Below, in pieces: positions 9,324-49,363 of a stretch of DNA of 64,000 nucleotides. Position numbers and translations under genes: made by a program. The stretch lies in assembly GCA_004022145.1 (NCBI GenBank), contig RCNU01000003.1; one strand, given 5' to 3'. The notes beneath the pieces were generated by a model. The model was not told the origin of the DNA. It worked only from the letters and a program-made list of their open reading frames with translations, and did not search any database. The DNA comes from Paecilomyces variotii (Eukaryota). Every line of letters begins with the position of its first letter. Position 1 is the stretch's first letter.

Positions 9324-9918
9324 TACCATACGGCACGCCATTTGCTGCTCATCCGGGCATACTGGCTCCGCTCACCGCTGTTGGGTGCTATGAAATCACG
9401 CAATTACCGAGCTTTGGATGTGCACGCCTCTGTTTACTGAAGTCCTGTGGGTTAATAGAGAGCCTCCCCATGCCAGACCTTGATGCATGCGAAGCGGCTT
9501 TCTCGGTGGTCACTTCATTGGGTGCGATCAGCTATCGGAGAAGTTAAGTTAACCTCCGCTTTCTTCTCGGCCATTCTTAAAATTGTGCTGTCGCAAAATC
9601 GATAGTATCGAAAGTCAATGACACACTAGAGCTGAGGAGGACCAATCTAGTCTAGTTGTTGTGGCTGTGGATTCGGTGGCTTGTGCGATAGCAGGTTTAG
9701 GCCGAGAACAGGGAACGGTGGGGTTTAGAACCCCCATCATTGTCATCATCAGATGCCGAAAAACACCGCAAGCTCATGCTGCTAATCCGTTTACGCAACC
9801 GCGCTGGGGCGAGCACGCTTCTAAAGCAAATTCTATAGACATAGCTCTGAATCTACCACTATAGCTTGGACTGCGCCACTCCTGGTGTGCTCATTGAGGC
9901 TTGACGGCTTGAGCAGAG

Positions 9919-23017: not shown

Positions 23018-24791
23018 ATGGATGCTCAGTACCCTTTTGCGTCGCGGGAAGACATCTGGCGCGTATTTGAGGAAGTCAAGGATCTCTACGCTACGCAAAT
23101 CGAACACGGGGAGCGGATTGCCAGATTGGAACGCCGCAAGGAGGACGATGCGAGATTGAAAAGTGTCTGGGGTCCTTTGTCTCCTTTCCCGAGCAGCGTT
23201 GCGGGCGTCATACCTCCCGGTAAGCACTTCTTTCAACTTACTTCAAGGCCGCAGGACTCTGGCTAACGGAATAAAAGTTGAAACTCCTTTCAACCCAGCT
23301 GCTGAAGCGTTTCGCGGCTTCGATCAAGGACACCAGCCAGGTCTCGTCAGCGCTATGGCATTGGATGGGGAGGATGAACCTAGAAGAGGAGCCTCAAGAG
23401 CGAACAGTGTTCGATTCGATGAGAGTGCCATACATGGATACTATGGGCAGGTGAATCGATCGAGTAGCGAGCTTCCCTTGAGGACGAGCAGTGGCATGAG
23501 CGGCCATCCTCTGACCGAACGATCCTTATCGCATAGGTCAGACGGCAGACAGAGCTCATCTGGTCAGTCACATCATTCAGCCAGAACCAACAGTCTTGGC
23601 CTCGATACCAGCAGGCTGATGGGTTCCGCAAGCGGGTCCCCTTCGACTGCTATGACACCTCCCCCCGGGCTTTTCATACTGGGCCCTGTGCCTTGCATCA
23701 TCCGCTGCTGGCTAACAACAAACTTTTCCAATGATTCTCTGCTCTATGCCGCTGTTTGCTCTGGATCATATACTTCCTTTCTTTGTTATCCCATGATCGA
23801 GAGGCTCGGCCTGGAGGATCTCATCATCCAAGATGGCGACCTACGTTGCATAAAACTGCCAGTATATCTTCCGGAAGCCAGTGTTCATCAGACATCCTCT
23901 CGTGCTGGTAGCCCTACTCCGCAGCTTCCATCCTTGACAATTCGCTTCCTTATCCGCGAGATCGACCCCACCGACAAAGGAATCCAGATCTTTCTCGGAA
24001 GCGACATCCTTCGTTCCCACAATGCTGATATCATGTTCTCTCAGGACAAGATCCTCATGGTGGATGACGAAAGGAACAAGATATCTATCCCTCTTGTTAG
24101 GCCTGAGAATGATTCAGTTTTCAATTGTTTGACAACTGTCGCGGACAAATCTTGGCATGAGGGCGCAGGACGACGTGACACGAATGGGCACTACCATGCC
24201 AATGGGAGTGTAGTGGGAGCGGTTAGCCGTCCTGCTTCGGCTACACTGCAGGAGAACTTGTCTGAAGCAGCAATAGCACCGGTTTCGAAAGAGACCTATG
24301 AGGTTGGCCCCAAATCTAGTTCTTCACATTCGCATGAGCCGCCAGAAGACGCAAGCCTGCAACAGACGCATCCAAAGTCTGCCGCAGGGAATGACTCCTC
24401 GCTCGATGCGCAGTGCAGACCAGAGAATACAAGCGTCTGGAGTTCTTGGAGACGTGACTCAAAGACAGACGCTAATGCTATCGGAATGTCCAAGTCAACG
24501 CGTGGCCGCGCAATGAAAGTTCTGCGGCCTTCTAAATCTTCTTCTTCGAACCGTGCTGTATCCACGCCTACCGCGGGCTCTAGCTCTGAGAATACGAATC
24601 CCAATCCTCCTGAAAATCGTCGACCAAGCCAGCCGGCATCTGCTGGCTCGCCCGAGATTTTCCAACCGACCCCGAGTCGGTCGGCCAGTACCAAGTCCGG
24701 AGATGGACCATGGCCGACGAAAACTCGATCTCTTAACCCAGTTGGAGGCGCTTCTGCGTTCGGATGGCTTAATTCCCAGCAACCCAAGTAG
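23018..24791 (+). CDS. Conserved-looking fungal protein with a central retropepsin-like domain and disordered flanks (1 intron ~23220-23277)
   Basis: MDAQYPFASREDIWRV exon then long ORF; YAAVCSGSYTSFL...RLGL and IFLGSDILRSHNADI motifs. Confidence 0.7.
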
Positions 24792-27950: not shown

Positions 27951-28083
27951 GTCACAGATATTGCCAGATTAGCGTTGGTCAATGGATCCGTGAAAGATCA
28001 ATTTGAAGGGATAGAGGGAAAAAAGATCAGAAGGAGAAAATATAGTAATTAGAATCCATGAGACGTCCGGTCTTGTGACAAAA

Positions 28084-29718
28084 CTAGTCTTCAAATGCTT
28101 CCCGGAGCTCGTCATCATACTGTTTCTTGTCACAGATTTTGCTTCGAACAACATAAGCAATATCTTTCTCCCAAAGGAATGGCATGACTAGATTGAATTC
28201 TTCGCCGTATTTGGAGCAAAACAGAGGTCGAATATGCTCGTCAAAAATTCTGAAAAGCCCAGAAGGGCTAGAAAGCGCAAGCGTGTACCAAAAAGTACCT
28301 GTCTCCCAAGTTCGGTTCATTATATCTGAAAGATACAGAGATAGTTCTGCATTATGAGATTCTCTCGATGTAGCGAGTTCGAGTTTATGCTCCTTTTCTT
28401 CCTCGGTGAGTATGTCCATAAACTCTGTCCGGATAGAATCGTATTCTGACGTCTCCAGCTGATCTATACCCTTGTTTGTCAGCCAGTGAGGGGGCATCAG
28501 CATTTCGATTGGTCTGGAGCAAGCCCACTCCAAATCAACGAGACAAGTTATATTCCATTCAGAATCCACGAATATGTTACTCTGGTGAAGGTCCGTCAGG
28601 TGAAATGTGAACGGGCCGCGACGAAAATCTCTCCTGAAAAATGGTGGGAAGACTGTTCGCATTGCACTTAGTGCGGCAAGTTGATAGGCGCAGTCTCCCA
28701 GGTCATTCACGGCGTTGGGTTGATTTCGAAATCGACTGTCATGAATTGATAGCTCGTCCAGAACGTAGGAATCAACAGTCGAATATGTGTAGTTGCGAGG
28801 CATTTCTGTCGGGATGTTCTCATTCTCCAGCTGATGGATCTCAGCCGAAAGTGGTCGATTCGATAGACATAAGAATCCATTGCTATCGATTATGAAAGAA
28901 CCGATTTTGGGCAAGGGAATCCGGGAAATGCTTAAAAGGATTCGAGAAAGGCCACGGAAGAAGTTTGCTCGCAGCTTGGCATTATGATAGCCATCTATCC
29001 ATGTTTCTGAGAGCATTTTCCCTTGGGTCTCCTCAATATACTCCAACAGAAGATAGCCAGTACCTCCTACATCACTTGAAAGCTGATCAGTGTACTGGTG
29101 ACGTACGTAGCTCGAAGGTGTCGGATATCCTAGCCACGACAGAAGCCGGCAACGTAAGATATGAAAATATCGAGCAAATCTTGGTAAGTATTCGAATCGA
29201 GTGAACTGGACGCAGTTAGCACGAGATAACGAGACAACGGGGTGCTTTCGGTTCCCCACAGTTTCGCCAGAAGACAATGCGAAGCCATACAATTTCGCAA
29301 TTGGCACATCTGAACAGTTCTCTTGAAGCCACGCATAGGCCCCTGCCTCGCATCGAATTTTCTCATCGCTATTGCCAGGGTTAAAAGCTTCACCCACGCG
29401 GTATGGAAGAGGAAACCGGACGAGGACACGACTTCCATTCCAATCATCCACTATCACGGGGATACAGACATTAAAGCTGCCATGTCGCCAGTCTTGCATT
29501 TCTCCTACATGACATTTGGCAGATGATTTTAGACCCAGATGGTGAGCAACAATGGTTCTTATCCATTCGCGCCGTTCGCTAAGATGAGTAAAGAAACGGT
29601 TCTGCTGTTCATAGTATGTCAATCGATGAAGAACATTTGATTCTAGTTCCTTGGCAACAGAGTAAGTTATCTCTTGGCCTCTAAGGAGTCGTCGTGTCTT
29701 GGGCATATCGACGGGCAT
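28084..29718 (-). CDS. Aminoglycoside-phosphotransferase/choline-kinase-like protein (probable in-frame intron ~29208-29261)
   Basis: HGSFNVC glycine loop, RFPLPY, EKIRCEAGAY, LTDLHQSNIFVD (Brenner-like), LVDLEWA. Confidence 0.85.
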   Translation of the reverse strand: MPVDMPKTRRLLRGQEITYSVAKELESNVLHRLTYYEQQNRFFTHLSERREWIRTIVAHHLGLKSSAKCHVGEMQDWRHGSFNVCIPVIVDDWNGSRVLVRFPLPYRVGEAFNPGNSDEKIRCEAGAYAWLQENCSDVPIAKLYGFALSSGETVGNRKHPVVSLSRANCVQFTRFEYLPRFARYFHILRCRLLSWLGYPTPSSYVRHQYTDQLSSDVGGTGYLLLEYIEETQGKMLSETWIDGYHNAKLRANFFRGLSRILLSISRIPLPKIGSFIIDSNGFLCLSNRPLSAEIHQLENENIPTEMPRNYTYSTVDSYVLDELSIHDSRFRNQPNAVNDLGDCAYQLAALSAMRTVFPPFFRRDFRRGPFTFHLTDLHQSNIFVDSEWNITCLVDLEWACSRPIEMLMPPHWLTNKGIDQLETSEYDSIRTEFMDILTEEEKEHKLELATSRESHNAELSLYLSDIMNRTWETGTFWYTLALSSPSGLFRIFDEHIRPLFCSKYGEEFNLVMPFLWEKDIAYVVRSKICDKKQYDDELREAFED

Positions 29719-30702
29719 GTGTTCTCATCAGGGGATCTAGCGATCTGTTGCTTTGAGAGTAATTGGGAAAGGGTCACGTGATTCAACCCCTGTCCCTGAC
29801 AGAGCAATCATAAAACGAATTTGGCCAATCAGAAATAGGATAGCTGTGCATAATAATAGGCAGGATTATGGTAGAATTCCGCATCTCGATGTCCATAGCC
29901 ACCTGTCTTCTGCGGGGCGGGCCCCAAGCACCATGGCGATGTGTCAAGAAGACTAGTATTTGGATTAGAGGAAGAGCCTTGATAACGAGCCTTTCTTCTC
30001 CGGTTTCTCCCAAGTCTCTAAATAACCATACCCCGCGTGTACTTACTGGCGCGTCAGTTATAAGCACTATTAACTTATAAGCTGCAGCCAGGGTTACAAT
30101 ACTGTGTCGCAGTGTTCCAAAGGAGTGAGCTGAGAATAGTCTAGCAACCTGCAGGTAAAAAAAGCCCTTCTTTTGAAGCCAGCATTTTCTTATCTCGCCT
30201 CTGTCAGCTTATTAACGGCAGTGCTTCTAACTATCAGTTAGTTAAGTTGGTTTCCATCTGCATCACCGCCTACTAACTAATCCTAGCTAAGTACCTGGTT
30301 ATCTAGGTAGTCAACAAATTATTAACTGCCAACTTGACCTATCTTGAAATCTAACATGCAGTATAAAACTTCAGACGTCGAAGGTATCACAGAAAGAGCT
30401 GGCATTTCTATGTACTAAGTCGAGGGAGGAAAGGTCGGCAGATAGACGCATGGTATAGAGAGACGCAGGGGGGGAGGGGCGCTGGTTGTTGATAGATCGT
30501 TTCGAGACCATATGGGCCCTGGGGGTCATATTAACTGCGTGTTGGAAGACCACCCCTGGTCTGGCAGGTAATCTGATAAGGTCAGGGTGAGAGTACTACT
30601 CTAATCACATATATATAACTATGAAGCTTACGCAGTTGGATATGTGGTCCATTTGGATGCTTAGTTCCCTTCCTCTTTATATTTGCCCTTTCACTACCTA
30701 TC

Positions 30703-32148
30703 ATGTCCACATCTCTAGAGATTGAGCAGAAATATGCTCTGGTGACCCGTCGGCTGGAGGTTCAAACTGAGACGACTGTACAGCAGTTGCATGCTGTCCT
30801 CAGCAGGCGAGAAGTAGTCAAATATCAATGGAGTATATTGAGAGCCCCCAGGCCCGACTTCTCCCTAGGTATCTATGTCACTGACCACTGTGCCACATGA
30901 ATCAGTCACGGCGCCAACAGGAAAGCGTGAGTGTCCGCGGGTGTCGATATGGATTCCAGTCTGAGAGTTGACTTGACGAACGATAGCACACATTGGATAC
31001 TTGATCCCATTGCTCAAGTTTGCTGATTTCATTCGAGCGGGTGGCGAGGTAAATCCCCTCCTCCAACTCAAGGCCGCGAGGAGCTGACCCTTTCCAGGTC
31101 ATCGTGGAACTCACCGACACGTACGCGTTCCTTGTGAACTACAAAATTCCCTGGGAACAAGTCCTTCACCGCACTGCGTACTATCAGGCTTTGATCACGG
31201 CTGCCTTGAAAGTAGTGGGGATTCCCCTGTCGAAGGTTCAAATTGTGCAAGCGTCCACATATCAGGGAACCTATTCATTTTCGGTGGACTTCTGGAAGCT
31301 TTGCGCCTTGTCTTCCCTGCATGATGTTCGGAGAACAGGCGCGGAGGTCGGATCTTCGACCATGCTAAGCCCCCTCCTCACGCCAATCCTTCAAGAATTG
31401 GCCGAGGTGCACTCAGCAGTGGATGTGCAGCTGGGCGGAAAGGACCAGGTAGGTAGCCTGACTTGGAAATTGGACAATGGCTAGCTAACTGATGCCAAAA
31501 CCACAGCGCGGCATCTTTGAGTTCGGCGAGGAGTTTCTTCCTCGGCTTGGGTATCCCAAACGGGCCCATGTCCTGAATGAAATGTTACCTGGTCTGACTG
31601 GGGACAAAATGTCCTCATCCTATGCGGCTCATACGAAAATCATGTTCCTCGATGATGCGAATACGATCCAAGAAAAGATCGCTGGAGCTGCATGCCCCAT
31701 CGGCGTAGTCGAGGGCAACGCTATCCTACCCATTGTGCAACATATTTTGATGCCGCTCAGGGAGCTACATCTGGCGGATTTCCCTCAGGCTCTTTCCGGT
31801 GAATTGGACACGGCTGATGAGGTGAGCGGCCACCGTGAAGGTGGACAGGCCCCCTTCAATGGTCTGGACGTTCAACCCGGAACCCTTTTCAGTGTCTCCG
31901 TTCGACGAGATGGAGACGGTGGCTGTGAGGAGCATCAGCACTACCGGTCGTATGAAGACCTCGAGCAGGACTATAGGGCGCACCGCATTCCTCCTGACTC
32001 ATTGAAGGCCGCCGTGGCATCTGGCCTTATCGAGGTGCTGGAGCCTTTGCGGCAGATCTATGAAAGCAGCCCGGAGTGGCGCGAGTCAGACCTGCGCGGA
32101 TACCCTGAAGATTGGCCTGTTCCAGCAGCCACTGTAGAACAGGCCTGA
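30703..32148 (+). CDS. Tyrosyl-tRNA synthetase-like paralog (class Ic fold), 401 aa; exons 30703-30832, 30906-30926, 30987-31048, 31098-31448, 31507-32148
   Basis: Spliced TAPTGKPHIGY (HIGH), LKFADFIRAG, GGKDQRGIF, LPRLGYPKRAH, PGLTGDKMSSS (KMSKS); exon lengths sum to 1206 nt in frame. Confidence 0.88.
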
Positions 32149-32716
32149 TCAACATGCTGTCTGATATACTGGTGGTAACATGGTGTTCTTTGTGACAGAC
32201 CCGCTACTTTCTCATGGATTTACGTTTCGAAAGGATCCTCTGATACTGGACCATAGCTAGTCGACCAATATAACCCCTAGCCATTTGACGGCTGAGGATA
32301 CATTATCTAGACCCATGAAGAGTGTTCTGGACAGGCCGTTCAAACGCGCAATCTGCGTATACCAGTCGCTAAAATAGCTGCATGACGGAGCTGACGAAGA
32401 CTAGACTGCGCCATACACACCTTTGTTCTATTTTACTCATCCTACTCTATGATTGTATTATATTTTGCTTCTTAGTACTTCTTTAGTCTGTCATTTCAGA
32501 TGAGGGGAAGTATTACTTCGTAGCGTGCAAATGAAAATGCCAGCCAATACGGTCCTAGAGGAGTGTATAGTCTGTGAAACCGCGTACTTATATCTCCATC
32601 AAGCCGGAGGGCCTGTCTCATCCTCCTGCACAGAAATCCTTTCCATTCATCTGTAGGTTTCAAACCTTACTACATAGACGAGATACACACCTCGAACCAG
32701 GTCGTTTGGCCCCAAG

Positions 32717-33690
32717 ATGACTCGAACAGACGACGACCGGTCGACCCCCCCTGTGACCATTGATCTGGAGCGGCTCAATACGAAGGACCACGCTGAAGCG
32801 CAGAGGCTCCTGCAAGCCGCGCAATCTCCAGGATTCTTCTATCTCGATTTTCGCAATCACGCAGCTACGAATAACCTGGCGGCGCAAACTGAGGACATCT
32901 ATCAGCTGGCGCGCCGCTATTTCGCGCAACCGAGGGAAATGAAGGTGAAGGATGTCCGAAAGGATCAGCCGGCCTCCTGTGATCGAGGGTATTGCCCTGC
33001 TATCTTCTGTTTCGCCAACCGGATTTGTAGGATGATAGGTTAACCGACATGAAATCATTAGGTATAAATTCTGCGAGAGCGACGAGTCGTTTGAGGTATA
33101 TTGTTCCTTCCAGATCGGAGCGATGGAGTCCAAGGGCTAACGAGAATGAGAATTAGATATCATACGATGAAATGAAGCAAGGAACTCTCCACCTGCCTGA
33201 GCTGCTGGGGGAAGAGGCATCCCTGCTGAACACATTTCACAATGAATGCCACTCCGCAGCGCATACGCTTTTGTCATGTCTTGCAGACATGCTTACCCTT
33301 CCCCTGGAGGACTACCATCAGGACGGGGAGCCGAGTGAGACTGGATTCAAACTCGTCGCGGAGCCATCACTAGAAAGGGCCAGTGAGGTGCAAGAAAACA
33401 AACACACCGATAGTGGCACCTTGACGATTCTGTTCTATGACAAATGGGGCCTACAGATCTGTCTCCCCACGCCTGAGAACGAATGGGTGTTTATCCCGCC
33501 TCCCCAACCTGGCTGCGCTTTGGTGCACGGGGGCAACTCGCTGCAGCGCCTATCGAACTATCAACTGCAGTCTCCGTTGCATCGTGTTACTCAGCCTCAG
33601 GATGGAGCGGCGGAGAGGTATTTTCTCTCATACTTTTTGCGACCAGCAAAGACAGTAGCGCGCCATGGCGTCGGGGATTTGCCTGATTAG
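32717..33690 (+). CDS. Fe(II)/2-oxoglutarate-dependent oxygenase (IPNS/DIOX family) #1, 3 exons
   Basis: PVTIDLERL, AAQSPGFFYL (DIOX_N); HTDSGTLTIL (HxD), SPLHRV (distal His), RYFLSYFLRP. Confidence 0.88.
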
Positions 33691-34759
33691 ATTATGTAGT
33701 TAGTTAATGATGGCTTTCTGCCAGTCGATCAAAAAGGAGAACTCCTACTTAGTCTAGACTCTACCTGGATCTTTAACAGTTAACTAAAGACAATTGGTGT
33801 ATGGATCTCGGACTCACCTGTGTTGGTCACTGACTCACGGCACAGTCAGCACTGTTCATGGTTGTTGTCAGTCTTGTGTAACGTCCGGAATAATAATCGA
33901 ATGAATTTGACGGATTCATGTGCTCTCAGGGATCTAGCGTACAATGAAAATTCAAAGCTGAAGAAGAAGAATCGACGAGAGATCTCCGACGAGGAAGTAA
34001 GTTATGCTCGGTGATTCTGCAACGCGGAGTAAACTATTCCAATTTTGTAAATTTTCAAGGCAAATAAACACCAATGATAAATAAGCTAGCGATAGAATTT
34101 CTGAGGATGAGGTTGATAAAACTGACGATATCTAAGTATGATCCAGTGAGAATTCCCCGGAGTAATGAAGTAGTTACTGGGACCTTCAGAAACTCGACCA
34201 ATAGTGTCAACAATAGACTTGATGTCTAGCAGTCCTGCTCCAGCACCACTAAGCTTACGATCATTTGCTGATCCCCCTCCTAACTCCAACCCTATCCCTT
34301 GTCGATGTCTATTATTCCGAAGGCGAAGCCTCGTCCGCGGCCATCCACCAGTCGCACAAGTTGATTTGAGCTCTGGCCAATGTTGGCGCTCCATTGGACA
34401 TGTACTACTTAGGCCTGGACACTTACACATACTCTAGGATCTTGGCTAACGTGCAGAAGTTAATCTGACGTGCAGAATTAGTCGCTCTCAACCACGCGTC
34501 CTTTATCAAACCCTATCGAATGCAGGTGCACCGAAGTAGTATTGCCCGTAGTATTCCATATGCATGATTCAAGCGGATGAAACTGTCGTGGTGGCTAACT
34601 AGGTCTGAAGAAAGCTCCTGTATCGATAGTGATATGTACAGTACTTAATTACATGATATATCTATCCTACTAGAAGAAACCACCGTGTTTCGATCACCCC
34701 CTTTGGGTGTTCCAAGTGTCATTAGTATTCCAGAAAGTGCCACAGAGGTTGATGTGAAG

Positions 34760-35958
34760 ATGTCCGACTTCAAGTTCGTGCCCACCATCGATCTCGCGAT
34801 GTTAGACAACCCGAGCTCCAGGACGCAGCTAGTGCAGCAGCTTCGTCAAGCACTGCTAGACGTGGGCATGTTTTATGTGGCCAACCCTCCATTGAGTCCC
34901 ACGGTAGTTGCGGAGGCCAAAACACAATCCGAGGCCTTTTTTGCACTCCCTTTTGCAGAGAAAACGAAGCTGGACATTGCCAATAGCCCTAGCTTTCTAG
35001 GATACGCGATGGTAAGAGCAGCATTGGACTAGATAAGATCATGGATTTATCACTGATGGCCTGGATAACTGAAGCTAGGGGCAGAGCGAACCAACAATCA
35101 GGTCGATTGGCGGGAGCATCTAACGCTCGCATCGCCTGGTCCTGAATCCATCTCCGGGCCTGTCTACCGGCGCCTTCTAGGGTCTGGTCAATGGCCGTCC
35201 GCCTCGTTGCTTCCCCGGTTTACTCCCGTTTTGCAGACACTCTTGGCCGAGTCAACGGCACTGGTAACGACTCTCCGGCGGTTGATTGCTGAGGCAATCG
35301 GGGTGGACAGTGACAAGCTGGAGTCGTTGTTTGATGCTCACCACCAGCAGTACCGAATCCGACTGATCCGCTATCCGGAGGTAGCAGCCTCCGCCGAGGA
35401 AACCCAGTCGCTAGGTGCCCATCAGGATACGTCCTTTAATACCTTAATCTTTCAGATCGGGGCACAGCACTGCCTGCAAGCGCGCAACAACCACGGCGAG
35501 TGGGTGGACTGTCCTCCGATCCCAGACCAGCCCATCTTTGTCGTCGGTCGAGGCTGCCAGGCGGCAACACATGGTCTTTGCCGGGCCCCATTCCACCGAG
35601 TGATTCCTCCTGCCCCTGGCAGCGGGAGTCGCCTCAGTATTGTGGTCACCACAGGCATCGGATATGATACCCCGCTGAAATCGCCGAAGACCAGTGAAGT
35701 GCTGTCCACGATGCGTACCCAGATTGTAGCCAATAACCCTGGGCATGAGGTGAGTCTGAATGAGGGCCTGGAGGAGGATGACGAATTCGAGACCGTGGGC
35801 ATGAAGGTCTTGCATAAGCTGGCTAAGAGTTATCCCGAGGTGACAAGACGTTGGGTAAGTAATTTGGTGGTTTGGGGATCGAAAACCGGATTAGTTTCAC
35901 GCTGACATGTCTCTATATATACCAGTACCCCGAACTGTTGGTTGAACCCTCCCATTGA
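34760..35958 (+). CDS. Fe(II)/2-oxoglutarate-dependent oxygenase (IPNS/DIOX family) #2, 3 exons
   Basis: VPTIDL, DVGMFYVAN, NSPSFLGY, DWRE; GAHQDTS (HxD), APFHRV, SRLS (RxS); ends WYPELLVEPSH*. Confidence 0.88.
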
Positions 35959-36921
35959 TCATTGACCGTGATGTTTTAAAACTCAGAATGCATAAAGATG
36001 TCACATTCGAGTACAGTCTGCACGCTAGACGTGCCACAGAATATCGCCCTAAGTGATAATTAACGCGAGCAAGCTGGAGCACACTTAACTAGTTAAAATT
36101 ATGTAACTTACATAAGAATTGCAGACGAGGTCACCTCCAAGTTAATCTTATGAGCTACTAATTAAGCTTGGGGGGTCTCTATCTACGTGCAATATGTTAT
36201 GTTGGGAGATCTGTTGGAATTATTTAGTGTCCTTCCAATCTAACAGGAGAGTGAGGTTGTCTTCCACAATAATCATCCTGATCCGCGGCTTCCTGTACAT
36301 AGTCAGGTGTCGGAATCTGGGGGCAGGTGGCATAGCGGTATAAGCGTCACGGTGGCAGGCTTTTAGCCCTCTTCCTCCTGCTTCATTCCGTGGTGCCTCT
36401 TGAGATCTAGAGGGAAAGAGGATTGAAGATCACGGGTTTGAATCCCATTAGCTGGCAACAATAACGCTATCTGTAACAAGACTTAGCTAGACTGGGTAGG
36501 GATGTCTAGGCAAGGTTTACTACAGGCGGTGGCTGGGGAATCACCAATCTACCATGCAACGACATGCTTGGAAGATCTATCGTACAACACTAAAGCCTAT
36601 CACGCTTACTTTGCATCACACCGTCCTGTGAAGAGGTAGCTAGATCGGGGCCATTTCATAATACAACCGTTACTACTCCGTTACTTCACGCATAGAGATA
36701 ACCCCAGCGAGCTGTGAGGGGAAGTGCATGCCCTTCTCAGCTTTGTTCAATTGTTGCCTCGCATGGACTAGTTGGATCTTACGAGGCGGGGAGTTGAATA
36801 TCTTCTGCGCTTCAAGGGCAACTCATCCCCATTATTGCTTGGTACCTAAATGGTTATAAAAGTTAGCTGAATCTGTAGCCTGATCCAGCTTTTGCACCCT
36901 GAGCTCCTAGTAGTTTGCGCC

Positions 36922-37955
36922 ATGATGTGGACAATTCAGGATTCACCGCGCCCTCCTCCGCTACTTGTCCTTGGCCTGAGTCGTACAGGCGGCACGTGTG
37001 AGTCTCCATCCTTAAGCCTTTGACAGACCTACTGATAGCATGCGTCGACAATAGCTCTAGCAACCGCGCTGGGTCTGCTCGGCTACCAAAGATTGTACGA
37101 TCTTGATGATGTCGCCCACGGAGGTCCAGAACACGCCGACTTCTGGCTTCAAGCCGTCCAAAAGAAACTATCCGGAAAGGAGGAATTCAGCTATGATTTC
37201 GACCAGCTCTTACATGGATATGATGTAGGTCTCGTGTCCCCTATTCCCTGGATCCCTGATCATTCTTCTCAGCCATGGGTTTGCTCTTATGACGATGGTT
37301 TATTGGGCGATCTAATATACACAGGGCGTCCGGAACATCCCCTTCGCAGCTTTCGCAGCTGAGCTGATTGCCCACTATCCATCCAGCAAGGTGATTCTTC
37401 CCACTCGGGATGTCGACAGCTGGCACATGTGAGTGATGTCTGCACCGCTCGCAAGTTTTAAAGCACCATGGCGCGATATGTCAAGACTTACAGGGAACCA
37501 AATACAGCTCCTGTCTTACAACTGTCTACCAGCGCTCTAGAGACCCGATCTTACAGTTCCTGGCCCTGTTCGATACCAATTCGCGAGTGTATGCCAATCT
37601 CCTTCGGGGCCTCCAGCAGATCCTGTACAAGGGCGACTTTCCGAACTATGGGAAGACGGCGTTTTACGAACACAATGAATATATTCGGCGCAACGTAAAG
37701 CCAGGAAATCTTCTTGAGTACAATGTGGAGCAAGGTTGGGAGCCCTTATGTGACTTCCTTGAAAAGGAAGTACCAATGTGTGCCTTTCCGCGAAACAATG
37801 ATCGGAACATCTTCTGGCAAGGGTGTCGGAAAAGGGATAAACGGGTGGCGAAAAAGGTGCTGATTCGTGCTCTCCCACTCTGTAGTATGCTCCTTATTGG
37901 TCTGGTGAGCTGGCTGTTACTGGGGGCAGGAGATCCAATTGACAGGGTCAAATGA
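36922..37955 (+). CDS. Sulfotransferase-family (Sulfotransfer_4-like) P-loop protein, multi-exon
   Basis: LVLGLSRTGG motif, FDQLLHGYD, ELIAHYPSSKVILPTRDVDSW, NLLEYNVEQGWEPLCDFLEKEVP..FPRNN, C-terminal hydrophobic helix. Confidence 0.8.
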
Positions 37956-38806
37956 ATCTCCCAGATAAGCTGTCGGATCCTGCCTACAGGCAGACCTCCT
38001 GTCGGGTTTCTCCCACGCCTTCTAGCTCCACTCACAGAGACAAATAGGCTGAGATAGTTGCTAGAGAATCCAAGCTCAGCGAGCTTCGCTCCAGATAAGC
38101 TTCTTGGGCAAGAACATCATTTTCCCAAGTATTAGTTATCCAAATAACTTTTTTGAGAAGATTAGCTTGACAAATCGCAAGCTATCATGCTGCGAGAACA
38201 ATGCACATTACATAAAACCAAGATATAGTTATGTTTCTTTGTATAATACATACGCGGCCCTTGGTATGTGGTTCCTGCCAGCTGGCTCTGATATTTAGCC
38301 AGTGTCCTTTGTTATTTTTCTCTTCCCCCGTTCTTCCTTTCTATACATATATGTCCGCTTGATCGAATCAATTGCGTTCGGCCCTTTACACCTTACCTAA
38401 GCTGGAGAAAATCTAGCATAAAGCTAGGAGCGTGAGATATATAATCACGTTCCCCAGTTAGCATGTGACATAATAGCGCTCAGTATAGGAGACTAGCGAT
38501 TAGTCTTAATACCATACTCCTGCTTACCATACTATTTGAATATGATCTATTGTTCAAGTTTGCCAATTTAATATATTGTACATATATTCATACTATCACG
38601 GACCCATATTGTTCCGCCCCCGATCTCCCAAAGTACCTACCCAAAACAAACCCCTCTTTCCCTTCCCTCCTTCTAAATTTAATGTACTCGTAGAGTGGCC
38701 TATCTACTTCGATAAACTACCTTGAGACTGTTATAGAAGACCACTAAGGTATTATTGTGGCCTATCCCCCGTCCGCTTTCTTCCATCCATATCGTCAGCG
38801 GTGGAA

Positions 38807-39894
38807 ATGGATGCATCCCGAGATACTGCGGTCGAGGCATCGGCCTATTCGACAGATCAAATCATTGCCTGGCTCAAACATATCCGCCTCCCGAATTCAT
38901 ATACAGCGTATATTGACGACCCGGGGAGCTTCCCGAAGACTTATGAATCGCTCCAGACAGTGATGAGATGTCAGATTTCTCGATTTCCATATGAGAATCT
39001 CTCCGTGCATTATTCACCGACCCATATCGTTGATATTCGCCCCGAGGTCCTCTATGAGAAACTGATGGGTCACAATGGGGCCAAAGGACGAGGCGGCTAC
39101 TGTATGGAACTCAGCATTTTTTTCCATCACATGCTCCGTGGCCTGGGATTCCACGTATACATGACCGCCGTCCGAATCCGCCCCCGGACTGACGGGGTGC
39201 CTGGGGGAGAATATGGAGGATTGTACGTCCTTCTATTATACGATCTTCCTTATCTACCCACCTGACAAAAGATTCCCGGACAGCTAATGTGCATGATAGT
39301 ACCCATATCAACAACATTGTGCATCTGCCTTCCGGAAAGAGATTCTCCGTTGATGTTGGGTTTGGTGGAGATGGCCCTATCAGCCCACTTCCCTTGGACG
39401 AACCAGGGCGAGCCATTCCAAATATCGGCCGGCAGGAAGTTCGACTCATCCAAGACTACATCCCCAGACAGAGATTCCCGGAACCGAAGCTCTGGATTTA
39501 CCAGTACCGTAACGGGCCTGAGCAGGAATGGAACTCGTTCTATAGCTTTGCCGAAATGGAATTTTTTCAGGATGATTTTGAGGTGATGAATTGGTTTACC
39601 AGTGCAAAGAGCTTACACCGCTGGACCGTGCTAGTGGTGCGATTTCTACGGATGGCCGAAGACGTACTTTTTTCAGCTCGTTCTGACTTACCGCTAGACC
39701 AGGACATCACTATTACTGGTAAAGTCATGTTGGTGGACAATGCCATCAAAGTCAACCTGGGCGGCAAGACGCGCGTCGTGCACACGCTGAGCTCAGAAAA
39801 GGATCGACGCCAGGCACTCAAAGATTACTTTGGCATTTCTTTAACAGATGAAGAAGCGCGGGGTATCATAGGGTGGGATCAGGCACTCAGTTGA
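38807..39894 (+). CDS. Arylamine N-acetyltransferase (Cys-His-Asp triad), 1 intron
   Basis: FPYENL, GRGGYCMEL (Cys), THINNIV (His), VDVGFGG (Asp). Confidence 0.92.
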
Positions 39895-40661
39895 TCCGAT
39901 AGTTATCTACCATGAACAATTTCTTATGTAAGAATTCAGGGGCAAAGTGTTGTTAGAGTGAATACTAGACTTATTTGATTTCTCTCTCTCTCTCTTCAGT
40001 TTCCATAACTCATTGACAGTTCTATATTCAGCTTGGTCAGGCTTGAGGTAAAAGTATATTGTGCAACCCCATTAATACTAATTATCTGGTGACCAGGGTT
40101 CTGATTTCATCGGCGCGGCTGGAACCGAAGGCCTATTATTATTACAAAGAAACACCAGGAGTCTACCAAGCGATACAGCTTGATGAATAAGGCGAGTTGC
40201 AACTGTTGTGACATTCTCTCACTTATTGTGGCGCACCGTCTCCTGCATCAGGAAGGTCAGCGGATGCAAGTTGTCAGACCAACACACTGCCCCCCATGTA
40301 TTAATTGCAGCATGGGTTCTTATCCTCATTAGGTGGGCTGCTTCTTCGGGTCGTCGTGCTAGACATTCTGGACCTCGTAGGATCGTTAGCTCTCTGGGGT
40401 TCCCATCCCATCTAATTCTGATTGGAATAACATATCAGCAACTCCTGTCCTAGTATCTTTCTGTAATTCTAGGGGATCCCTCCCCATCATTCGGGACGCC
40501 CTAGTAACAGTATGGGGAAACCAGTTCGGGTACAGTACAACTGAAATGTACTCCTGGTCTTGTCAGGATTGCATGAAGTGAGGTGAATACATATTGAGAC
40601 CAGGGTGCGTGGCACGATTTATCTCATCTGCTCCCGACAGATCGACGGCCAACCGACCTCA

Positions 40662-42259
40662 ATGTCGCTTTCACCTCATTCAGTGACGAGAAGAGTGTAT
40701 ATGGAGTCCAAAGGCGAGCCGTTAGTTGTTGATCGGATCATCCCAATGGAACCAGATGACAAGACAACACCTGGACACCCTCTCGACAGCGTTGTGGAAA
40801 CAACACCGGTCGTGATAATCGACTTCGATGAGTCCATCCAACACCCTCACAATTGGCCGAATGTCCAACGATGGTCCATCCTGATCCTCAACACTCTGAT
40901 CAGCCTCCTGGTGAACCTGTCCACAACGATTGTAGCTCCCCTGCTGGAGACTATCTCAGCAGAATTTCACATGGACCCCCAGGTGGAAGGACCGCTGGTG
41001 ATGTCGAGCTATGTGCTGACCCTCGCACTCGGGCCCTTGCTCCTGGCGCCCTTCGGGGAGCTATATGGGCGCGTGGTCCTGATACAGTGCGGCCTGCTAG
41101 TATATCTGGTGTTCAATCTGGCATGCGGATTTGCAACGACCAAGGCCCAGCTCATCGCCTTCCGCGTGTTGGCGGGGATTGGGAGCGGAGCGGCCCCCGT
41201 GGTAAGTCTTGGATCGCTTCCTCACTATTATTCTATGTTTTCCTGCTCAGAGACTCGGTGCAGGTGGGCATCGCCATGATTAGCGACTGCTTCCGCAATG
41301 ATGAACGAGGGACCGCCTTGGGGGTCTTGAACATGGCTTTTATTCTGGCTGCTCCCCTGGGGGCCATCGTGGGAGGATTGGCCGCCCAATCTACGTCCTG
41401 GCGATTCATTTTCTTCGCACCCTCCATCGCGGCGGGATTGCTCGTCCTCGTTGGGCTCTTTGTGTACCACGAATCCTATCCACCGGTCATCCTCTCACGC
41501 AAGAAAAGACAATTCCAGCACGACGGCCATCTCGTGTGCAAAACGCCCTATGACGATCGGCACCCGACCATCGCAGACCTCTACTATAAGACCATCATCC
41601 GACCCGTATACTTCCTCACCACGCAGCCCATCATTCAGGTCCTCTCGCTCTACACGGGCTATATTTACGGCTTGACGTATCTCATCTTCTCCACCTTTAC
41701 CAGCTTGTGGGAACAGCAATACCACGAAACAGCCTCGATCGCTTCATTGCACTACATCGCCGCAGGGATCGGTTATTTCATCGGGATTGTCGCCTGCATC
41801 CTGTTCGCGGATCGAATTTACCGTGGGCTGAAAGGGAAAAACAATGATATCGGGCGACCAGAGTTCCGGATCCCGATGATGTCTGTGAGTGCTATCCTCA
41901 TCCCGACGAGCCTCTTCTGGTATGGCTGGACGGCACAAGAGCACATCCAGTGGGTGGTGCCAAATCTGGCGATTGTCCTCACCATGTGTGGCTGTACCAT
42001 TGTCTTTCAATGTACGACGGCCTACTGTATCGAAGCCTACCCACTGTATGCGGCGAGTGCCTCCGCAGCGTCCTTTTTATGCCGGGGGCTCTGTGCTTTT
42101 GGGTTTCCCTTATTTGCACCCAGCCTGTATGCACGGCTGGGGTATGGCTGGGGCGATAGCATACTAGGGTTTGTGGCGCTGATAATTAGCGGGCTGGTGC
42201 CCGTGGTGCTGTGGAAATTTGGGGTTCGACTGCGGAAAATAAGTAGCTATGCCATCTAG
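40662..42259 (+). CDS. MFS drug:H+ antiporter (DHA1-like), 1 intron; start uncertain (40662/40701/40746)
   Basis: HPHNWP, GPLLLAPFGELYGR, AFRVLAGIG, ISDCFRNDERG, WRFIF, ESYPPVIL, PEFRIP, LYARLGYGWG. Confidence 0.9.
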
Positions 42260-42387
42260 ATAGAATTGTCGGGTTGCTTCTTCTTTCTCCCTTGATAAAC
42301 CATGTACGTATCTGGCTCGAACAGCGCAGATGGTGCGTAGATGATTAAAGAGCTCTACAACGCCTAATAATACTGGTAGACAACCGA

Positions 42388-42389
<2 letters not shown>

Positions 42390-44334: not shown

Positions 44335-46515
44335 ATGGATATCGCGATCTGTATCCCCCTAGCTCTTCTCTATGGAGCGTGCGCGCTTCTCCTTATCCAC
44401 GGCCTAGGCTTCCAACTGCATATGCGGACCATAAAGAACAGTGAATCCTTCACATCCCCAATCGATATCCAGGATGGTCGTTCAGGTCCCTCAGGACAGG
44501 GATCGAATGCAGACCGCCTGACTATATCTCAGCAATATGATGAGTATAAGGAGATGTATTTCAAACTCCAGAATGTGGAACGGCATCCGGAAGTGATGCC
44601 GCGCGCCAAACATCTTCTACTTGCGTTCCTGTCTGAAGCAATTCTTTGCGCCCATGCGCAGCATAGTGCAATCCTCGCCATTGAGCGATTTTCCCCCAGC
44701 GCGATCGCCGCATTTATGCGCCGCGAGCTGGATCACATCACGCATCAATGGCAACAGTATCTTCAGCGGCGAAAAGAGGGCCACGCCCGGGAGTTGTTTT
44801 CAGATGCGGATGCCGCAAAACGGTGGCTCGTAAAAAAGGCCCCAGTCAAGCTGGTGGACGGCGCGTGGCTTGGTCAAGTCCACACCGTGGGGATTCCATT
44901 TGCATACCGTTCCATTACCAAGGACGCCTGGCAGGTGCTCTCGGAGGAGCTTGGGGACGGCTATCTGGAGAAGAACCATGTCCACGTGTATCAGAAGCTA
45001 ATGCGTCAAATTGGCGTGGATCTCCCGGCTGCCGACTCGGCGGAGTTTATACAAGCCATGGACAATGATCCTTGCATTTGGAAAGGTGCAATTGCGCAAC
45101 TTCTCATAGCCTTGTTTCCAAGTGAATTCCTGCCGGAGACTCTGGGATTCAATATGCATTTCGAGATGTTGACCCTGGAAACCATGGTGGCCGCTACGGA
45201 GCTGCGCGAGGTTCACCTCGATCCCTCCTATTTCAATTTGCACATTTCAATCGACAACGCCGATTCGGGACATATGGCTATGGCGAGTCACATTGTCATG
45301 AAATACCTGTCGACCGTGCAGGCGGTCGAGGGAGCAGATGCCGCCCAGCAGGCCTGGAAGCGCGTCCAGGCGGGATTTGTGCTCTCCAAGCATCTCCCGT
45401 CCCACCAGCGCAGTTTCCCCAACCAAGGTCCCCTTGCCATAGATCTTATGAGGATCTTTCAAGCTAAATCCGTTGCATGCCATCGACTGCATGACAACTG
45501 CCGAGTGAGATTGGGCGGCCGGTCACTGAGCACCTGGCTCAACCCGGACCATTTCCAGCGGGAGCGATGGCAGACGGATTTTCTGGACTGTCTCAGCAAC
45601 GATAGGCTGTGGGTGCGAAAAGGTGACAGTGCAAGCAGCCGACTAGTCCAGCAATGTGTCTGGGGTGGACCCATGTTTGGTGCGTTCACCGATTCTGAAG
45701 TGGCCACGATCAAGAACTGGATCGATAGTTTGGCACCCGATAGTCCAATGACATATTGGCATTTCATCGGATGGTCTTGCAGCTCTGATGAATCCCAAGT
45801 CAGCGCCAGTGGCCCAGTCAATCTCGAAACCGTTTTCCGAGACGCGAGGATTTCTCCTAGTCACCTTCCTCCCCCAGTCCGGAGCATCGATCTCAGCTTT
45901 GTCCCAATCCTCCATAAATTGATCCCACTTTGGTTCGTCCACCCATGTCTGCTCGAGTCGTGTCTACGGGTTCCAGTTAGGACCACCAACTCGATCGGCT
46001 GTTCGGTGGTTCGTCTTCTTCGCGCCCAGTATGGCTTTGATGAAACCACTGGGATCGCCGGAATGGATGAGATACGCCGGGCAGGATGGGTCGATTTGAC
46101 TGAGATTGGCATGGAGATTATCTCTCATGTCGAGGACATGCCTTCCAAACCCAAGGATGTCGCGGATGTCCTAGAGCGGTGGCCGTCGGCATTTGCAGAG
46201 ACGATGCTCGCTTTGGCAATGCGACCCCAGCAGTGTTTCTGGTCCCTGCTGGGTCTCACCCAAGCATTCGTTCATCTGCACCACTGGCTTGCCCTGTCAC
46301 CGTTGCTTTCGCGGAGGACGAGAGCTATCGTCCACCGTATTGCACTGCAGGAACAAGTGAGTTTGGATACGTGTATGAAGGGACTTCAGGAGCAGGATCT
46401 GGCATATGAGGATTTTTGGAAAGGGTATGAGCTTGGCCGGGTTGAAATTGACGGTTGTTTTGAGAAACGCAAATCAATCTCTTCGCTTCAATCCACTATG
46501 AGAAAAGGAGCCTGA
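44335..46515 (+). CDS. Heme-oxygenase-like diiron oxidase (HDO; 'iron-containing redox enzyme' family), intronless, 726 aa
   Basis: APVKLVDGAWLG, WQVLSEELGDG..KNHVHVY (E..H), LGFNMHFE, YFNLHISIDNADSGH (H..D..H), WGGPMFGAF. Confidence 0.8.
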   Translation: MDIAICIPLALLYGACALLLIHGLGFQLHMRTIKNSESFTSPIDIQDGRSGPSGQGSNADRLTISQQYDEYKEMYFKLQNVERHPEVMPRAKHLLLAFLSEAILCAHAQHSAILAIERFSPSAIAAFMRRELDHITHQWQQYLQRRKEGHARELFSDADAAKRWLVKKAPVKLVDGAWLGQVHTVGIPFAYRSITKDAWQVLSEELGDGYLEKNHVHVYQKLMRQIGVDLPAADSAEFIQAMDNDPCIWKGAIAQLLIALFPSEFLPETLGFNMHFEMLTLETMVAATELREVHLDPSYFNLHISIDNADSGHMAMASHIVMKYLSTVQAVEGADAAQQAWKRVQAGFVLSKHLPSHQRSFPNQGPLAIDLMRIFQAKSVACHRLHDNCRVRLGGRSLSTWLNPDHFQRERWQTDFLDCLSNDRLWVRKGDSASSRLVQQCVWGGPMFGAFTDSEVATIKNWIDSLAPDSPMTYWHFIGWSCSSDESQVSASGPVNLETVFRDARISPSHLPPPVRSIDLSFVPILHKLIPLWFVHPCLLESCLRVPVRTTNSIGCSVVRLLRAQYGFDETTGIAGMDEIRRAGWVDLTEIGMEIISHVEDMPSKPKDVADVLERWPSAFAETMLALAMRPQQCFWSLLGLTQAFVHLHHWLALSPLLSRRTRAIVHRIALQEQVSLDTCMKGLQEQDLAYEDFWKGYELGRVEIDGCFEKRKSISSLQSTMRKGA

Positions 46516-47857
46516 AGTCATGGCCGGTTTGTTATTAGGCAAATACTACAGGAGCATTTGAAACCTCGGAAATGAGATAACTAATCATAGCAAGAAATTG
46601 TGGTAACCCTGAATATCATCACTCTACCACAGTTAGTAGTTGTCGTTGGCGAAACGATATAAAATGAAGATAACAGTTCATTTTACGCTACTCACTCGCG
46701 CCTTCATCTGATTGGACGTCGTCATCTGGATCTCACGTGCTCTTTACTGCCTTCCTTTTTCGTCTGATCAGGTGATCTTCCCTCCCTAATAATCAAAACA
46801 AACAACTATTTTCTACCTGTCTAACCTATTATTTTACTACCTCTACTAATCTGCCAGCTTTATGGGATTTCCTAATCGATATACCCCATTCGCTCTACTA
46901 GTTATCTATTATACGTCGATTTAACCCAATAGGGGAGACTATAGGCGATCACTTACAGGTTCCTGTAAGGTTAAGATATGATGAATTCGAAGGTTTAGGC
47001 ACACAATACAGTACGATCATTTCATTAATGTATACCGGAGCCTGAATCCAGGCCTCTGAATACCCAGATGAAGTATTGGATTGTCCACCCTTTCCCTTTC
47101 CAGCCTCTCTGCCAAGCTCCCAGCACCTGCGGTACTTCTTGCATCGGGCATCAGACCTGCGGCAGCATTCAAACCACCCATGGGGTTGTTGGCGCTGGAA
47201 CCGTTGGAAGAACGGACCCGCGAGTACTGATACGTAATCAGTATACCATCCCAAAAGGCACAACGACGAAACCCTCTTTCCGGATTTCTTCCGACCTGAT
47301 CCGCAGCGATGGCTTGGCCAGCCGCTGGAGCACTATTGTTGGCTTTTGTGAGGGGTCCTAGGTGAGTAAGTTAATTGCTGCCCGGCAAGCTGCATAATCA
47401 GTATTTACTTATCTAGAGGAGGGGTAGGGTTTAGCGTCATTGCAATCAACAAGGATTGAATCAGGATTTCCAGATGAAAAATTGGCCCACTGAATATGTA
47501 ACGGGTTATTGCAGCAGACACGGGAGAAAATTGAATTGAGAAGTAGAATAAACTTCATGTTCACTTAGTTTCCAAAGCCTTGGACTAAATTCATGGTCGA
47601 TGTCGGAAAAGGTCAACTGAAATAATAAAATGACGGCTCCTTAGAGGTCTGGCCCCTAAGTCTGATATAAAATCATTCCATATTCGCGCTGGTATGTGCA
47701 TATGGAATAGCCATTTAGATCATTTCCAAGGAACTCACACAAAACCGAGTATACAGGTCACTTGACCCTTCGCGTAGGGTCTTAAATATCGTATCGTTCG
47801 CCCTTGCCTTACGCTATTTTCATCATTGCTTCCGTCCCATCCCAATGTACCGATACA

Positions 47858-49363
47858 ATGGGGTTCTATCTATCGAAGCCCCAGCTTCAAAAACGGCACT
47901 CTGGTCCCATTGATACGGCCACTAGAGACCGAAAGACTTATCAGCAGAGCTGCAGCGGATTATCTGTTTTCGATAGTCTATATTCGACACAGTCCCTCAT
48001 GCCTGTTACCCATGCTCATGACCCCTTAGCCCGCGAAAAGGAAGATGAACACCCCACATTCCCTTTGTTGTCTTTCATCTGGGACCCTGAATCCCCTCCC
48101 GAGTACCCAGAAGATGAGGATGCGATCAAATTTCTTCCCTTGGAGAGGGGTTTCCAATGGGTGAGCCAATTACCCGGCTGTCGTCAATCAAAGCATTGGG
48201 GAAGCACAAAGAAGGTGACCATGCAGTTTCTGGATGAAATTCACACAAGTATGAAAAATAGTGTGTCAAAATTACCAGAGGAGTTGCAGCAGAGATCCGA
48301 TAATATTGAACGTGCAAAAAAGGAGCAAGATCTTATAGAAACAGCAGTAAGATCAATAACACACATGATGCCCGATGCAAGCGCGGTCAGGTCAGGAATC
48401 ATTGCACAGTCTATGTTAATCATTTTCCTCCACAATGGTATGTAATACTTTTAGGTATTTTGTTACATATTTCTATAACTCTAATAACTAACTTCTTAGC
48501 AGATGTGGTTGAACTAGATCCTTCGCAAGCAGTACGTCTTCACCATGAATGGAGTAGAGTCTCTCAATTTAATCATGAGGCATCCATAGGGCCACACAGT
48601 CGCAGATGAAATTATGCATCTCTGGAGAGAAAGCACCGATGGGGAGCTGCAGATTCCGGAAGCAACACTTCAGGGGGGGAATTTCCTTCACAGTTTCACA
48701 AAGCGTGTTCTGGAAGAAGACCCAATCAGCGGCAAGGAGCTCTTGAAAGGCGCTTACCGATGGGTGGTCTTCACTCGAGGATATAAGACTATCCCGCCGA
48801 GCACTTTTGAGAGCCTGCGGAGCTATCTAGATTACCGCGATATTGACATTGGGAATGAGTCAGTTCATCTGATTAACTCTTTATACAATGATATACCCAT
48901 TGAGTAATGTGAACGCTAACCACATTGAATTATCAGTCTCCTCCTAGGACAAGTGGCCTTTGCTTGTGACGTCCGGTTTTGTGAAGAGGACAAAGCTATA
49001 TTGAAAAACCTGATCCGGCTCTGGGAAGACCACATTTCTCTTGTCAATGATCTATACTCCTTTCACAAAGAATACGAAAAGTCAAAATCTGGCTGGCTGA
49101 TACTGAATGCCATTGATGTGATCCGGAAGACGAATGGGGTTTCGACCTTCACCGCGAAGAAAATAGCCCGAGAAATTATATTCGACCTGGAAATCCAGTT
49201 TTACAAAGAATTTAAGAGACTCCTGGATCATAGCTTGCTGAACTCTTGTCAGGAAAAGTTGGCGAAAGGAATCGCGAAATGTATGGCAGGGCATGTCTAT
49301 TACTCTGTCACCAACCCTCGTTATAGTGGACCAGGAACAACAGTATTCAATAGCACAGATTAG
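47858..49363 (+). CDS. Class I terpene synthase (sesqui-/diterpene cyclase fold), 4 exons
   Basis: Spliced FLHN|DVVE (DDxxE-like), YLDYRDID effector Arg, NDLYSFHKE NSE motif, C-terminal PRY. Confidence 0.82.

Follow-up and report, generated by a model that had tools for sequence, protein, structure and literature searches.

A transcribed tyrosyl-tRNA synthetase-like gene of Paecilomyces variotii with replaced tyrosine ligands and linked oxygenase genes

We describe a tyrosyl-tRNA synthetase (TyrRS)-like gene in a 64,000-nucleotide stretch of Paecilomyces variotii contig RCNU01000003.1 (assembly GCA_004022145.1; this whole stretch is called the window below). The encoded protein keeps the ATP motifs of TyrRS, and the two residues that bind the hydroxyl of tyrosine are replaced. 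The gene is transcribed and spliced, it groups with relatives from other filamentous ascomycetes that share conserved changes in the pocket and at tRNA recognition positions, and it is linked to oxygenase genes in the window and elsewhere. It is very probably not a housekeeping TyrRS. For the mechanism taken as a whole we lean, though only slightly, towards an activating enzyme that would use a substrate other than tyrosine and an acceptor other than tRNA-Tyr in a pathway with the linked oxygenases, a reading that comes from sequence comparison.

Gene structure and the amino-acid pocket

The gene has five exons (30703-30832, 30906-30926, 30987-31048, 31098-31448 and 31507-32148) joined at GT..AG borders, and its four introns (73, 60, 49 and 58 nt) are of sizes typical for fungi. 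Contigs from public RNA libraries over positions 28000-47000 of the window show between them exactly the four predicted joints (4/4 in run X2, 3/4 in X3 and 1/4 in X7, X2 and X3 being from different studies). The splicing that an earlier note on this DNA had worked out by hand is thus seen in RNA-library contigs rather than by reverse-transcription PCR. Contig depth in these runs cannot rank expression between genes. In the metatranscriptome run X1 a single unspliced contig spans 30292-33747 with 40 differences, and this contig probably derives from another strain's DNA that is present in the RNA library.

The spliced product is letter-identical to XP_028486263.1 (P0012), which carries the source name 'tyrosyl-tRNA synthetase [Paecilomyces variotii]'. 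It scores 125.3 bits against PF00579 (tRNA-synt_1b, cut-off 21.1), both large exons match this family separately, and a search of the Protein Atlas returned 'Tyrosine--tRNA ligase' clusters only. A model made with AlphaFold2 from a 12-sequence alignment has a predicted local distance difference score (pLDDT) of 82.1 and a predicted template-modelling score (pTM) of 0.83, with weak regions limited to the KMSSS loop, a disordered insertion at residues 280-303 and the C-terminal tail. The earlier note had proposed a comparison of such a model with the yeast enzyme, and the fold agrees, with both domains matched in yeast and human TyrRS (TM score 0.90 by target).

The class I ATP motifs are complete, with HIGY at residues 52-55 and KMSSS at 222-226, and GGKDQ begins at residue 184. 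The earlier note had found the two ATP motifs intact and had read three altered pocket motifs, and each of these is present in the spliced protein: QWITAPTG from residue 42, ELTDTYAFLVN from 75 and TPILQELA from 166. In a HMMER alignment with human (1n3l) and yeast (2dlc) TyrRS, their partners are YWGTA(T/P)TG, L(F/L)ADLHA(Y/F)LDN and YP(G/L)(L/M)QALD. YWGTAPTG has therefore become Q42-W-I44-TAPTG, LLADLHAFLDN has become E75-L-T77-D-T79-Y80-AFL-V84-N, and YPxxQALD has become T166-P-I-L-Q170-E-L-A173. Yeast TyrRS binds the tyrosine hydroxyl through Tyr43 and Asp177 and the alpha-amino group through Tyr170, Gln174 and Gln192 (PMC1934993). These residues align with Q42, A173, T166, Q170 and Q188, respectively, so that both hydroxyl ligands are replaced, as the note had claimed, along with the Tyr of the alpha-amino triad, of which the two Gln residues are kept (2/3). 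The tyrosines that contact Mg and phosphate, Y55 and Y100, are retained. In the 99 canonical rows of the alignment described in the next section, the residues that were replaced are near-invariant (Y42 0.91, G44 0.93, L75 0.96, A77 0.99, H80 1.00, D84 0.97, Y166 1.00, D173 1.00), which indicates that the changes are not ordinary drift.

Compared with the cytosolic enzymes of yeast (Tys1, 2dlc) and human (YARS1, 1n3l and 1q11), the protein has the same two-domain fold at 34-35% identity and shares with them HIGH, KMSSS, the tyrosines that contact Mg and phosphate, and the two Gln ligands of the alpha-amino group. It differs by Q42, A173, T166, E75, T77, Y80, G190 and S353, by a 3-residue deletion near residue 157 and by the disordered insertion. 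We take E75 and Y80 to correspond to Leu65 and His70 of the Methanocaldococcus jannaschii enzyme (MjTyrRS), on the basis of the shared LLADLH motif. That Y80 replaces the function of the lost Tyr166 is speculation. Among the M. jannaschii chains the top sequence match is 1u7x, an engineered enzyme specific for O-methyl-tyrosine (93.6 bits; wild-type 1j1u scores 89.9), which presumably carries Y32Q and D158A and would thus match the P. variotii protein at both hydroxyl ligands. Tyr32, Leu65, His70 and Asp158 are positions used to engineer MjTyrRS enzymes specific for non-canonical amino acids (PMC9499402), and the natural replacements fall on these same positions. The engineered enzymes retain recognition of the tRNA-Tyr type and Tyr151, whereas the family to which the P. 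variotii protein belongs has changed both.

Relatives in filamentous ascomycetes and the tRNA recognition positions

Word-based and exhaustive searches turned up similarly rewired relatives in Arthroderma uncinatum, Purpureocillium lilacinum, Aspergillus avenaceus (two copies), Hirsutella rhossiliensis, Macrophomina phaseolina, Xylona heveae, Sclerotinia sclerotiorum, S. nivalis, Phlyctema vagabunda, Drechslerella stenobrocha, Rhypophila decipiens and Geoglossum simile, which we take to represent seven classes of filamentous ascomycetes. The alignment comprised 157 sequences (the TyrRS-like protein, its seven first matches and 149 library representatives), of which 122 rows were kept after removal of a near-duplicate (P0001) and of 34 rows with less than 90% coverage of the catalytic core. 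In the resulting tree all 20 rows that carry Y80 and a residue other than Tyr at position 166 lie beyond one branch, with a value of 99 in the Shimodaira-Hasegawa-like approximate likelihood ratio test (SH-aLRT). Two divergent rows, P0159 and P0232, join them there, for a total of 22, and the opposite side holds the canonical rows (99) and a single further row. The 22 rows form one branch of an unrooted tree and not yet a proven clade, and the word clade is used below in this sense. When metagenome loci were scanned with the clade alignment, the scores of 79 of 80 marked them as TyrRS of canonical or archaeal type, and L011 alone fell in the clade.

Members of the clade are 35-60% identical to the P. 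variotii protein. HIGH is retained in 21 of the 22 rows and KMS(S/A)S in every row except one where Pro takes the place of the first Ser; at single positions of the ATP site, H52 is found in 21 rows and Y55, K222, M223 and S226 in all 22, and Q188 is conserved in 21/22. The pocket positions are highly variable, as expected if substrates diversified: position 42 (Q4 L4 F4 Y3 A2 I2 H1), position 75 (L5 E4 Y3 C3 D2 G1 S1) and position 173 (A7 D5 G4 S4 L1) each take several forms, and position 77 takes eight states. Since Glu or Asp occurs at position 75 in only 6/22 rows, the suggestion of the earlier note that Glu75 favours a basic substrate could apply to one subclade at most. The most clade-specific residues are G190, Y80 and W379, the last of these lying in the C-terminal domain and present in 22/22 clade rows against 6/99 canonical ones.

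The two A. avenaceus copies have unlike pockets (L42/G75/L173 in P0004 and H42/E75/G173 in P0005), and only the accession of P0005 adjoins a heme-oxygenase-like gene. Two relatives end in a GNAT domain (PF13302) at the C-terminus, namely P0167 of Phlyctema vagabunda (610 aa) and P0179 of Drechslerella stenobrocha (632 aa). P0179 retains Y42 and D173 but carries Y80, C166, V189 and G190. It follows that the mark of the family is H80Y, Y166(T/C) and K190G, and not the loss of tyrosine binding itself; the pocket changes were added to this set in subclades such as that of P. variotii.

The conservation of the ATP site bears on whether the protein is an enzyme at all. The TyrRS fold might serve as a regulatory, substrate-presenting or scaffolding subunit of an oxygenase, with no adenylation, and HisZ is a synthetase paralog without an adenylation role. 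Linkage to oxygenases would suit such a pseudo-enzyme, as would the invariant Trp379, which hints at a new binding surface. In a clade this divergent, however, the persistence of HIGH, KMS(S/A)S, Y55, Y100, D78, Q170 and Q188 would be difficult to account for if ATP and amino-acid chemistry were not under selection, and we hold the pseudo-enzyme to be quite unlikely.

We then compared the positions that contact tRNA-Tyr. Yeast Arg193 (Mj Arg174) reads C1 and A73, yeast Arg151 (Mj Arg132) reads G72 or C1, Mj Lys175 reads G72, and yeast Asp321 reads G34 (PMC1934993). At the position of Arg193 (189 in our numbering) Arg is found in 92/99 canonical rows and in 15/22 of the clade. The position of Lys175 (190) is Lys in 93/99 canonical rows and Gly in 20/22 of the clade, and the position of Arg151 (150) is basic in 94/99 canonical rows, while in the clade it is acidic in 14/22 and basic in 2/22, one of these being P. 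variotii. At the position of Asp321 (353) the canonical rows have Asp in 61/99 and Glu in 9/99, and the clade has Asp in 0/22 and Glu in 3/22. The P. variotii protein itself retains R150 and R189 and has G190 in place of Lys and S353 in place of Asp. We read this pattern as recognition of tRNA-Tyr that was probably lost or changed at the base of the TyrRS-like family.

These positions also bear on the possibility that the protein still charges a tRNA, which it would load with a non-proteinogenic amino acid that the neighbouring oxygenases might supply, for a tRNA-dependent transferase such as one of GNAT fold. The full two-domain architecture is kept and confidently modelled, Arg189 persists in most of the clade and Arg150 in P. 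variotii, two relatives carry GNAT fusions, and the pocket changes fall on positions mutated in MjTyrRS variants specific for non-canonical amino acids (PMC9499402). GNAT-fold transferases and synthetase-transferase fusions that use aminoacyl-tRNA are known (PMC12945691, PMC9437257). Against this, the Asp that reads G34 is missing in 22/22 rows, Lys190 has become Gly and position 150 is mostly acidic, and the window holds no obvious tRNA-dependent transferase. ARAGORN finds no tRNA gene in the cluster, the sole call in the window lying 21 kb off, and none in L011. A tRNA-charging enzyme of this kind is, in our judgement, unlikely. A more elaborate version, in which the subclades are natural 'orthogonal' synthetases that each charge a different oxygenase-made non-proteinogenic amino acid onto a tRNA without the usual tRNA-Tyr determinants, to be consumed by dedicated transferases (GNAT-fused in some species), seems to us very doubtful; if it were true, fungi would have independently evolved what laboratories make by mutating Tyr32, Leu65, His70 and Asp158. 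The fused GNAT domain itself fits equally well with transfer to a small acceptor and with a relay that depends on tRNA, as in ErdS.

The database name and the TyrRS fold would be accounted for if the gene encoded a spare TyrRS, housekeeping or drug-resistant, with tyrosine activation intact. Both hydroxyl ligands, invariant or nearly so in the canonical rows, are replaced; a self-resistance copy would need such ligands to stand in for the housekeeping enzyme. In addition, the residues that read tRNA-Tyr have changed, the gene is patchily distributed and present twice in A. avenaceus, and among the open-access papers and preprints listed by our searches we found no fungal cluster that uses TyrRS as a resistance gene. 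Such a spare copy is highly improbable.

Linked oxygenases and the proposed function

Two of the genes downstream of the TyrRS-like gene are candidate conserved partners, a 2-oxoglutarate (2OG)-Fe(II) oxygenase (oxygenase A) and a heme-oxygenase-like putative diiron protein (Table 1). A 2OG oxygenase adjoins the TyrRS-like gene in both loci with readable flanks, the window and L011, and a PF03171 gene does so in Sclerotinia. The oxygenase of L011 is 51% identical to oxygenase A, and the TyrRS-like proteins of the two loci are only about 37-44% identical. One X2 RNA contig spans the TyrRS-like gene into oxygenase A, which does not prove a single transcript. L011 (1-21118) also carries a pyridoxal-phosphate-dependent decarboxylase, a PNPOx-like flavoprotein, a PhyH dioxygenase and a Zn2Cys6 regulator.

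The heme-oxygenase-like protein finds its best homologs in organisms that also have a TyrRS-like protein, and the two genes are closely linked in 5/8 organisms examined. They lie 12 kb apart in the P. variotii window, and they have consecutive accessions in A. uncinatum (KAF3483848 / KAF3483849) and A. avenaceus (KAE8153821 / KAE8153822). In one further organism each of the two proteins is assigned to contigs of 15599 and 6940 nt, and in S. sclerotiorum the heme-oxygenase-like protein is SS1G_07963 and the TyrRS-like protein SS1G_07965. In Xylona heveae both genes are on one 3.3-Mb contig, with nothing closer established. Linkage of the TyrRS-like gene to other biosynthetic genes is thus conserved. 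A complex prediction for residues 1-394 of the TyrRS-like protein with residues 125-726 of the heme-oxygenase-like protein gave a score of 0.00, which speaks neither for nor against binding.

The S. sclerotiorum locus has been studied genetically. SS1G_07964 is SsOxy1 (PF03171) and SS1G_07963 is SsOxy2 (PF14518); strains that lack one or the other are impaired in infection cushions, in tolerance of oxidative stress and in virulence, the mutants show convergent metabolome shifts, and an unidentified cluster driven by a nonribosomal peptide synthetase has been proposed for the two genes (PMC13608281, 2026). SS1G_07963 is 44% identical to the heme-oxygenase-like protein of the window, and the next locus tag after SS1G_07964, SS1G_07965, encodes a member of the TyrRS-like clade. 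SS1G_07964 shares its PF03171 domain with oxygenase A. The Sclerotinia subclade differs in its pocket, which has F42, S75, L77 and C166. The words tRNA and tyrosyl are absent from the text of the SsOxy report, so SS1G_07965 was evidently not considered there.

The reading that we slightly favour is that the TyrRS-like protein is a full-length descendant of cytosolic TyrRS that would no longer serve translation. From the retention of HIGY, KMSSS, Y55, Y100, Q170, Q188 and D78 we infer that it still forms an acyl-adenylate with an alpha-amino acid, and because both hydroxyl ligands are gone and Q42, E75, T77 and Y80 have been gained in the subclade, this amino acid is probably not tyrosine. The acyl group would then pass to an acceptor other than tRNA-Tyr, the likeliest being the amine or hydroxyl of a small molecule that the linked 2OG oxygenase and heme-oxygenase-like protein make or process. 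In P. variotii the product may be tailored by the second 2OG oxygenase, the sulfotransferase-like protein and the arylamine N-acetyltransferase (NAT) homolog and exported by the major facilitator superfamily (MFS) transporter. The earlier note had taken the gene for a biosynthetic ligase rather than a housekeeping or self-resistance copy. The direction of that proposal holds up, given the lost tyrosine ligands, the changed tRNA readers and the oxygenase linkage, and its full reading is only partly supported. The changes at the tRNA positions and the conserved oxygenase partners, both of which go beyond that note, tell more about function than the pocket alone.

Several observations weigh against this mechanism. 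Arg189 is kept in the P. variotii protein and in 15 of the 22 clade members, and the P. variotii protein also keeps Arg150 and its entire C-terminal domain, so some tRNA could still bind. In P. lilacinum and G. simile the heme-oxygenase-like gene lies apart from the TyrRS-like gene, and 120 queries found no homolog of the former within 10 kb on either side in L011. With at least 486 matches, the heme-oxygenase-like family far exceeds the TyrRS-like clade, and the coupling is therefore not obligatory. Oxygenase B (Table 1) lacks close homologs in the other species that bear a TyrRS-like gene (its best named match is 33% identical); it was rejected as a conserved partner and appears lineage-specific, which would make the wider cluster lineage-specific as well. 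In the 80 metagenome loci two queries (E <= 1e-5) found no heme-oxygenase-like homolog, a weak control given that many of the contigs are short.

The closest working analogies are bacterial ligases derived from aminoacyl-tRNA synthetases (aaRS), namely the cupin/MetRS-like hydrazine synthetases, MshC and SbzA, which resemble the TyrRS-like protein in that the ATP site is kept and the determinants for the cognate tRNA are degraded. In the bacterial cupin/MetRS-like enzymes a module derived from a class I aaRS works in secondary metabolism beside N-oxygenating enzymes, adenylating an amino acid and then transferring it to an N-hydroxy amine. These enzymes are MetRS-derived, cupin-fused and bacterial, while the TyrRS-like proteins are TyrRS-derived, free-standing or GNAT-fused, and fungal; N-N bond chemistry belongs to the hydrazine synthetases. 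Cyclodipeptide synthases are not known to carry the ATP motifs of synthetases. They use a TyrRS/TrpRS-like Rossmann fold in natural-product synthesis (PMC3105412; PMC12945691), but they are single-domain proteins that take ready-made aminoacyl-tRNAs, and the TyrRS-like protein, which has HIGH, KMSSS and a C-terminal domain, is not one of them. ErdS, a fungal AspRS fused to a DUF2156 transferase (PMC9437257), resembles the GNAT fusions P0167 and P0179 in joining a fungal aaRS to an acyl-transfer domain. The AspRS part of ErdS is normal and charges tRNA-Asp, whereas the TyrRS-like protein has a changed pocket and changed tRNA readers and, in P. variotii, no fusion.

To our knowledge, synthetase paralogs recruited into metabolism are mostly bacterial. 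We found no fungal TyrRS-derived biosynthetic family described in open-access papers or preprints, although subscription journals could hold one, and the accessible parts of reviews on aaRS duplication and on aminoacyl-tRNA-dependent biosynthesis list none. If the favoured mechanism is right, an entire class of fungal clusters escapes genome mining by known core enzymes, since their core enzyme is annotated in databases as a housekeeping synthetase. The SsOxy1/SsOxy2 virulence and development locus would gain a candidate core enzyme and a testable pathway, and the clade would be a natural experiment in reprogramming the TyrRS pocket at positions used for genetic-code expansion. The combination of an adenylating enzyme, a heme-oxygenase-like protein and a 2OG oxygenase would also point to a chemistry of amino-acid oxidation and ligation without a described fungal example.

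Neighbouring genes in the window

The features of the window are collected in Table 1. All six downstream neighbours have spliced or full-length RNA contigs in runs that hold the TyrRS-like transcript, and the heme-oxygenase-like gene is covered by an unspliced X2 contig (43562-46590).

Table 1. Features of the window, with positions counted from its first nucleotide
Feature	Position	Strand	Family	Details
Atypical tRNA-Arg call	9711..9804	-		ARAGORN; 94 nt, anticodon GCG
Serine-rich open frame	23160..24791	+		543 aa, low-complexity, no Pfam match
APH-like phosphotransferase open reading frame	28084..29724	-	PF01636 (below curated cut-off)	upstream of TyrRS-like gene
TyrRS-like gene	30703..32148	+	PF00579	five exons, 401 aa; class Ic catalytic domain and C-terminal anticodon-binding-type domain
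2OG-Fe(II) oxygenase A	32717..33690	+	PF03171	279 aa, three exons; joints 32987>33061, 33093>33155; directly downstream of TyrRS-like gene; candidate conserved partner
2OG-Fe(II) oxygenase B	34760..35958	+	PF03171	354 aa; RNA joints
Sulfotransfer_4 protein	36922..37955	+	PF17784	about 265 aa, four exons, three RNA joints; hydrophobic C-terminal stretch
Arylamine N-acetyltransferase homolog	38807..39894	+	PF00797	336 aa; joint 39222>39300
MFS transporter	40662..42259	+	PF07690	511 aa; joint 41200>41263
Heme-oxygenase-like putative diiron protein	44335..46515	+	PF14518	726 aa, single exon, hydrophobic N-terminus; candidate conserved partner
Terpene-synthase-like gene	47786..49363	+	PF19086 (on 48929-49363)	cluster membership uncertain

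In the heme-oxygenase-like protein the candidate metal ligands E204/E205, H215, E277, H303, D307, D310 and H313 are invariant in 14 homologs. The Pfam match covers only residues 163-347 of the 726, and about 380 conserved C-terminal residues have no assigned domain and contain many Trp and Gly residues that are invariant in the same number of homologs. Some homologs carry the source name 'ABC transporter' and are recorded with PF14518 only, an apparent misnomer. The translation of the NAT homolog contains stretches that resemble what we take to be the Cys, His and Asp motifs of NAT enzymes.

On the other side of the TyrRS-like gene, an RNA joint at the APH-like frame (29205>29260) reads CT..AC on the plus strand and hence GT..AG on the minus one. 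The serine-rich frame was considered as an arginine-cyclodipeptide synthase and rejected, because those enzymes belong to a different family without domain matches (PMC11610942) and the frame is of low complexity. The tRNA-Arg call has a plausible T arm and a long insert, and may be intron-bearing, degenerate or false. The terpene-synthase-like gene lies just past the heme-oxygenase-like gene, a hint that the locus adjoins or includes a terpenoid pathway.

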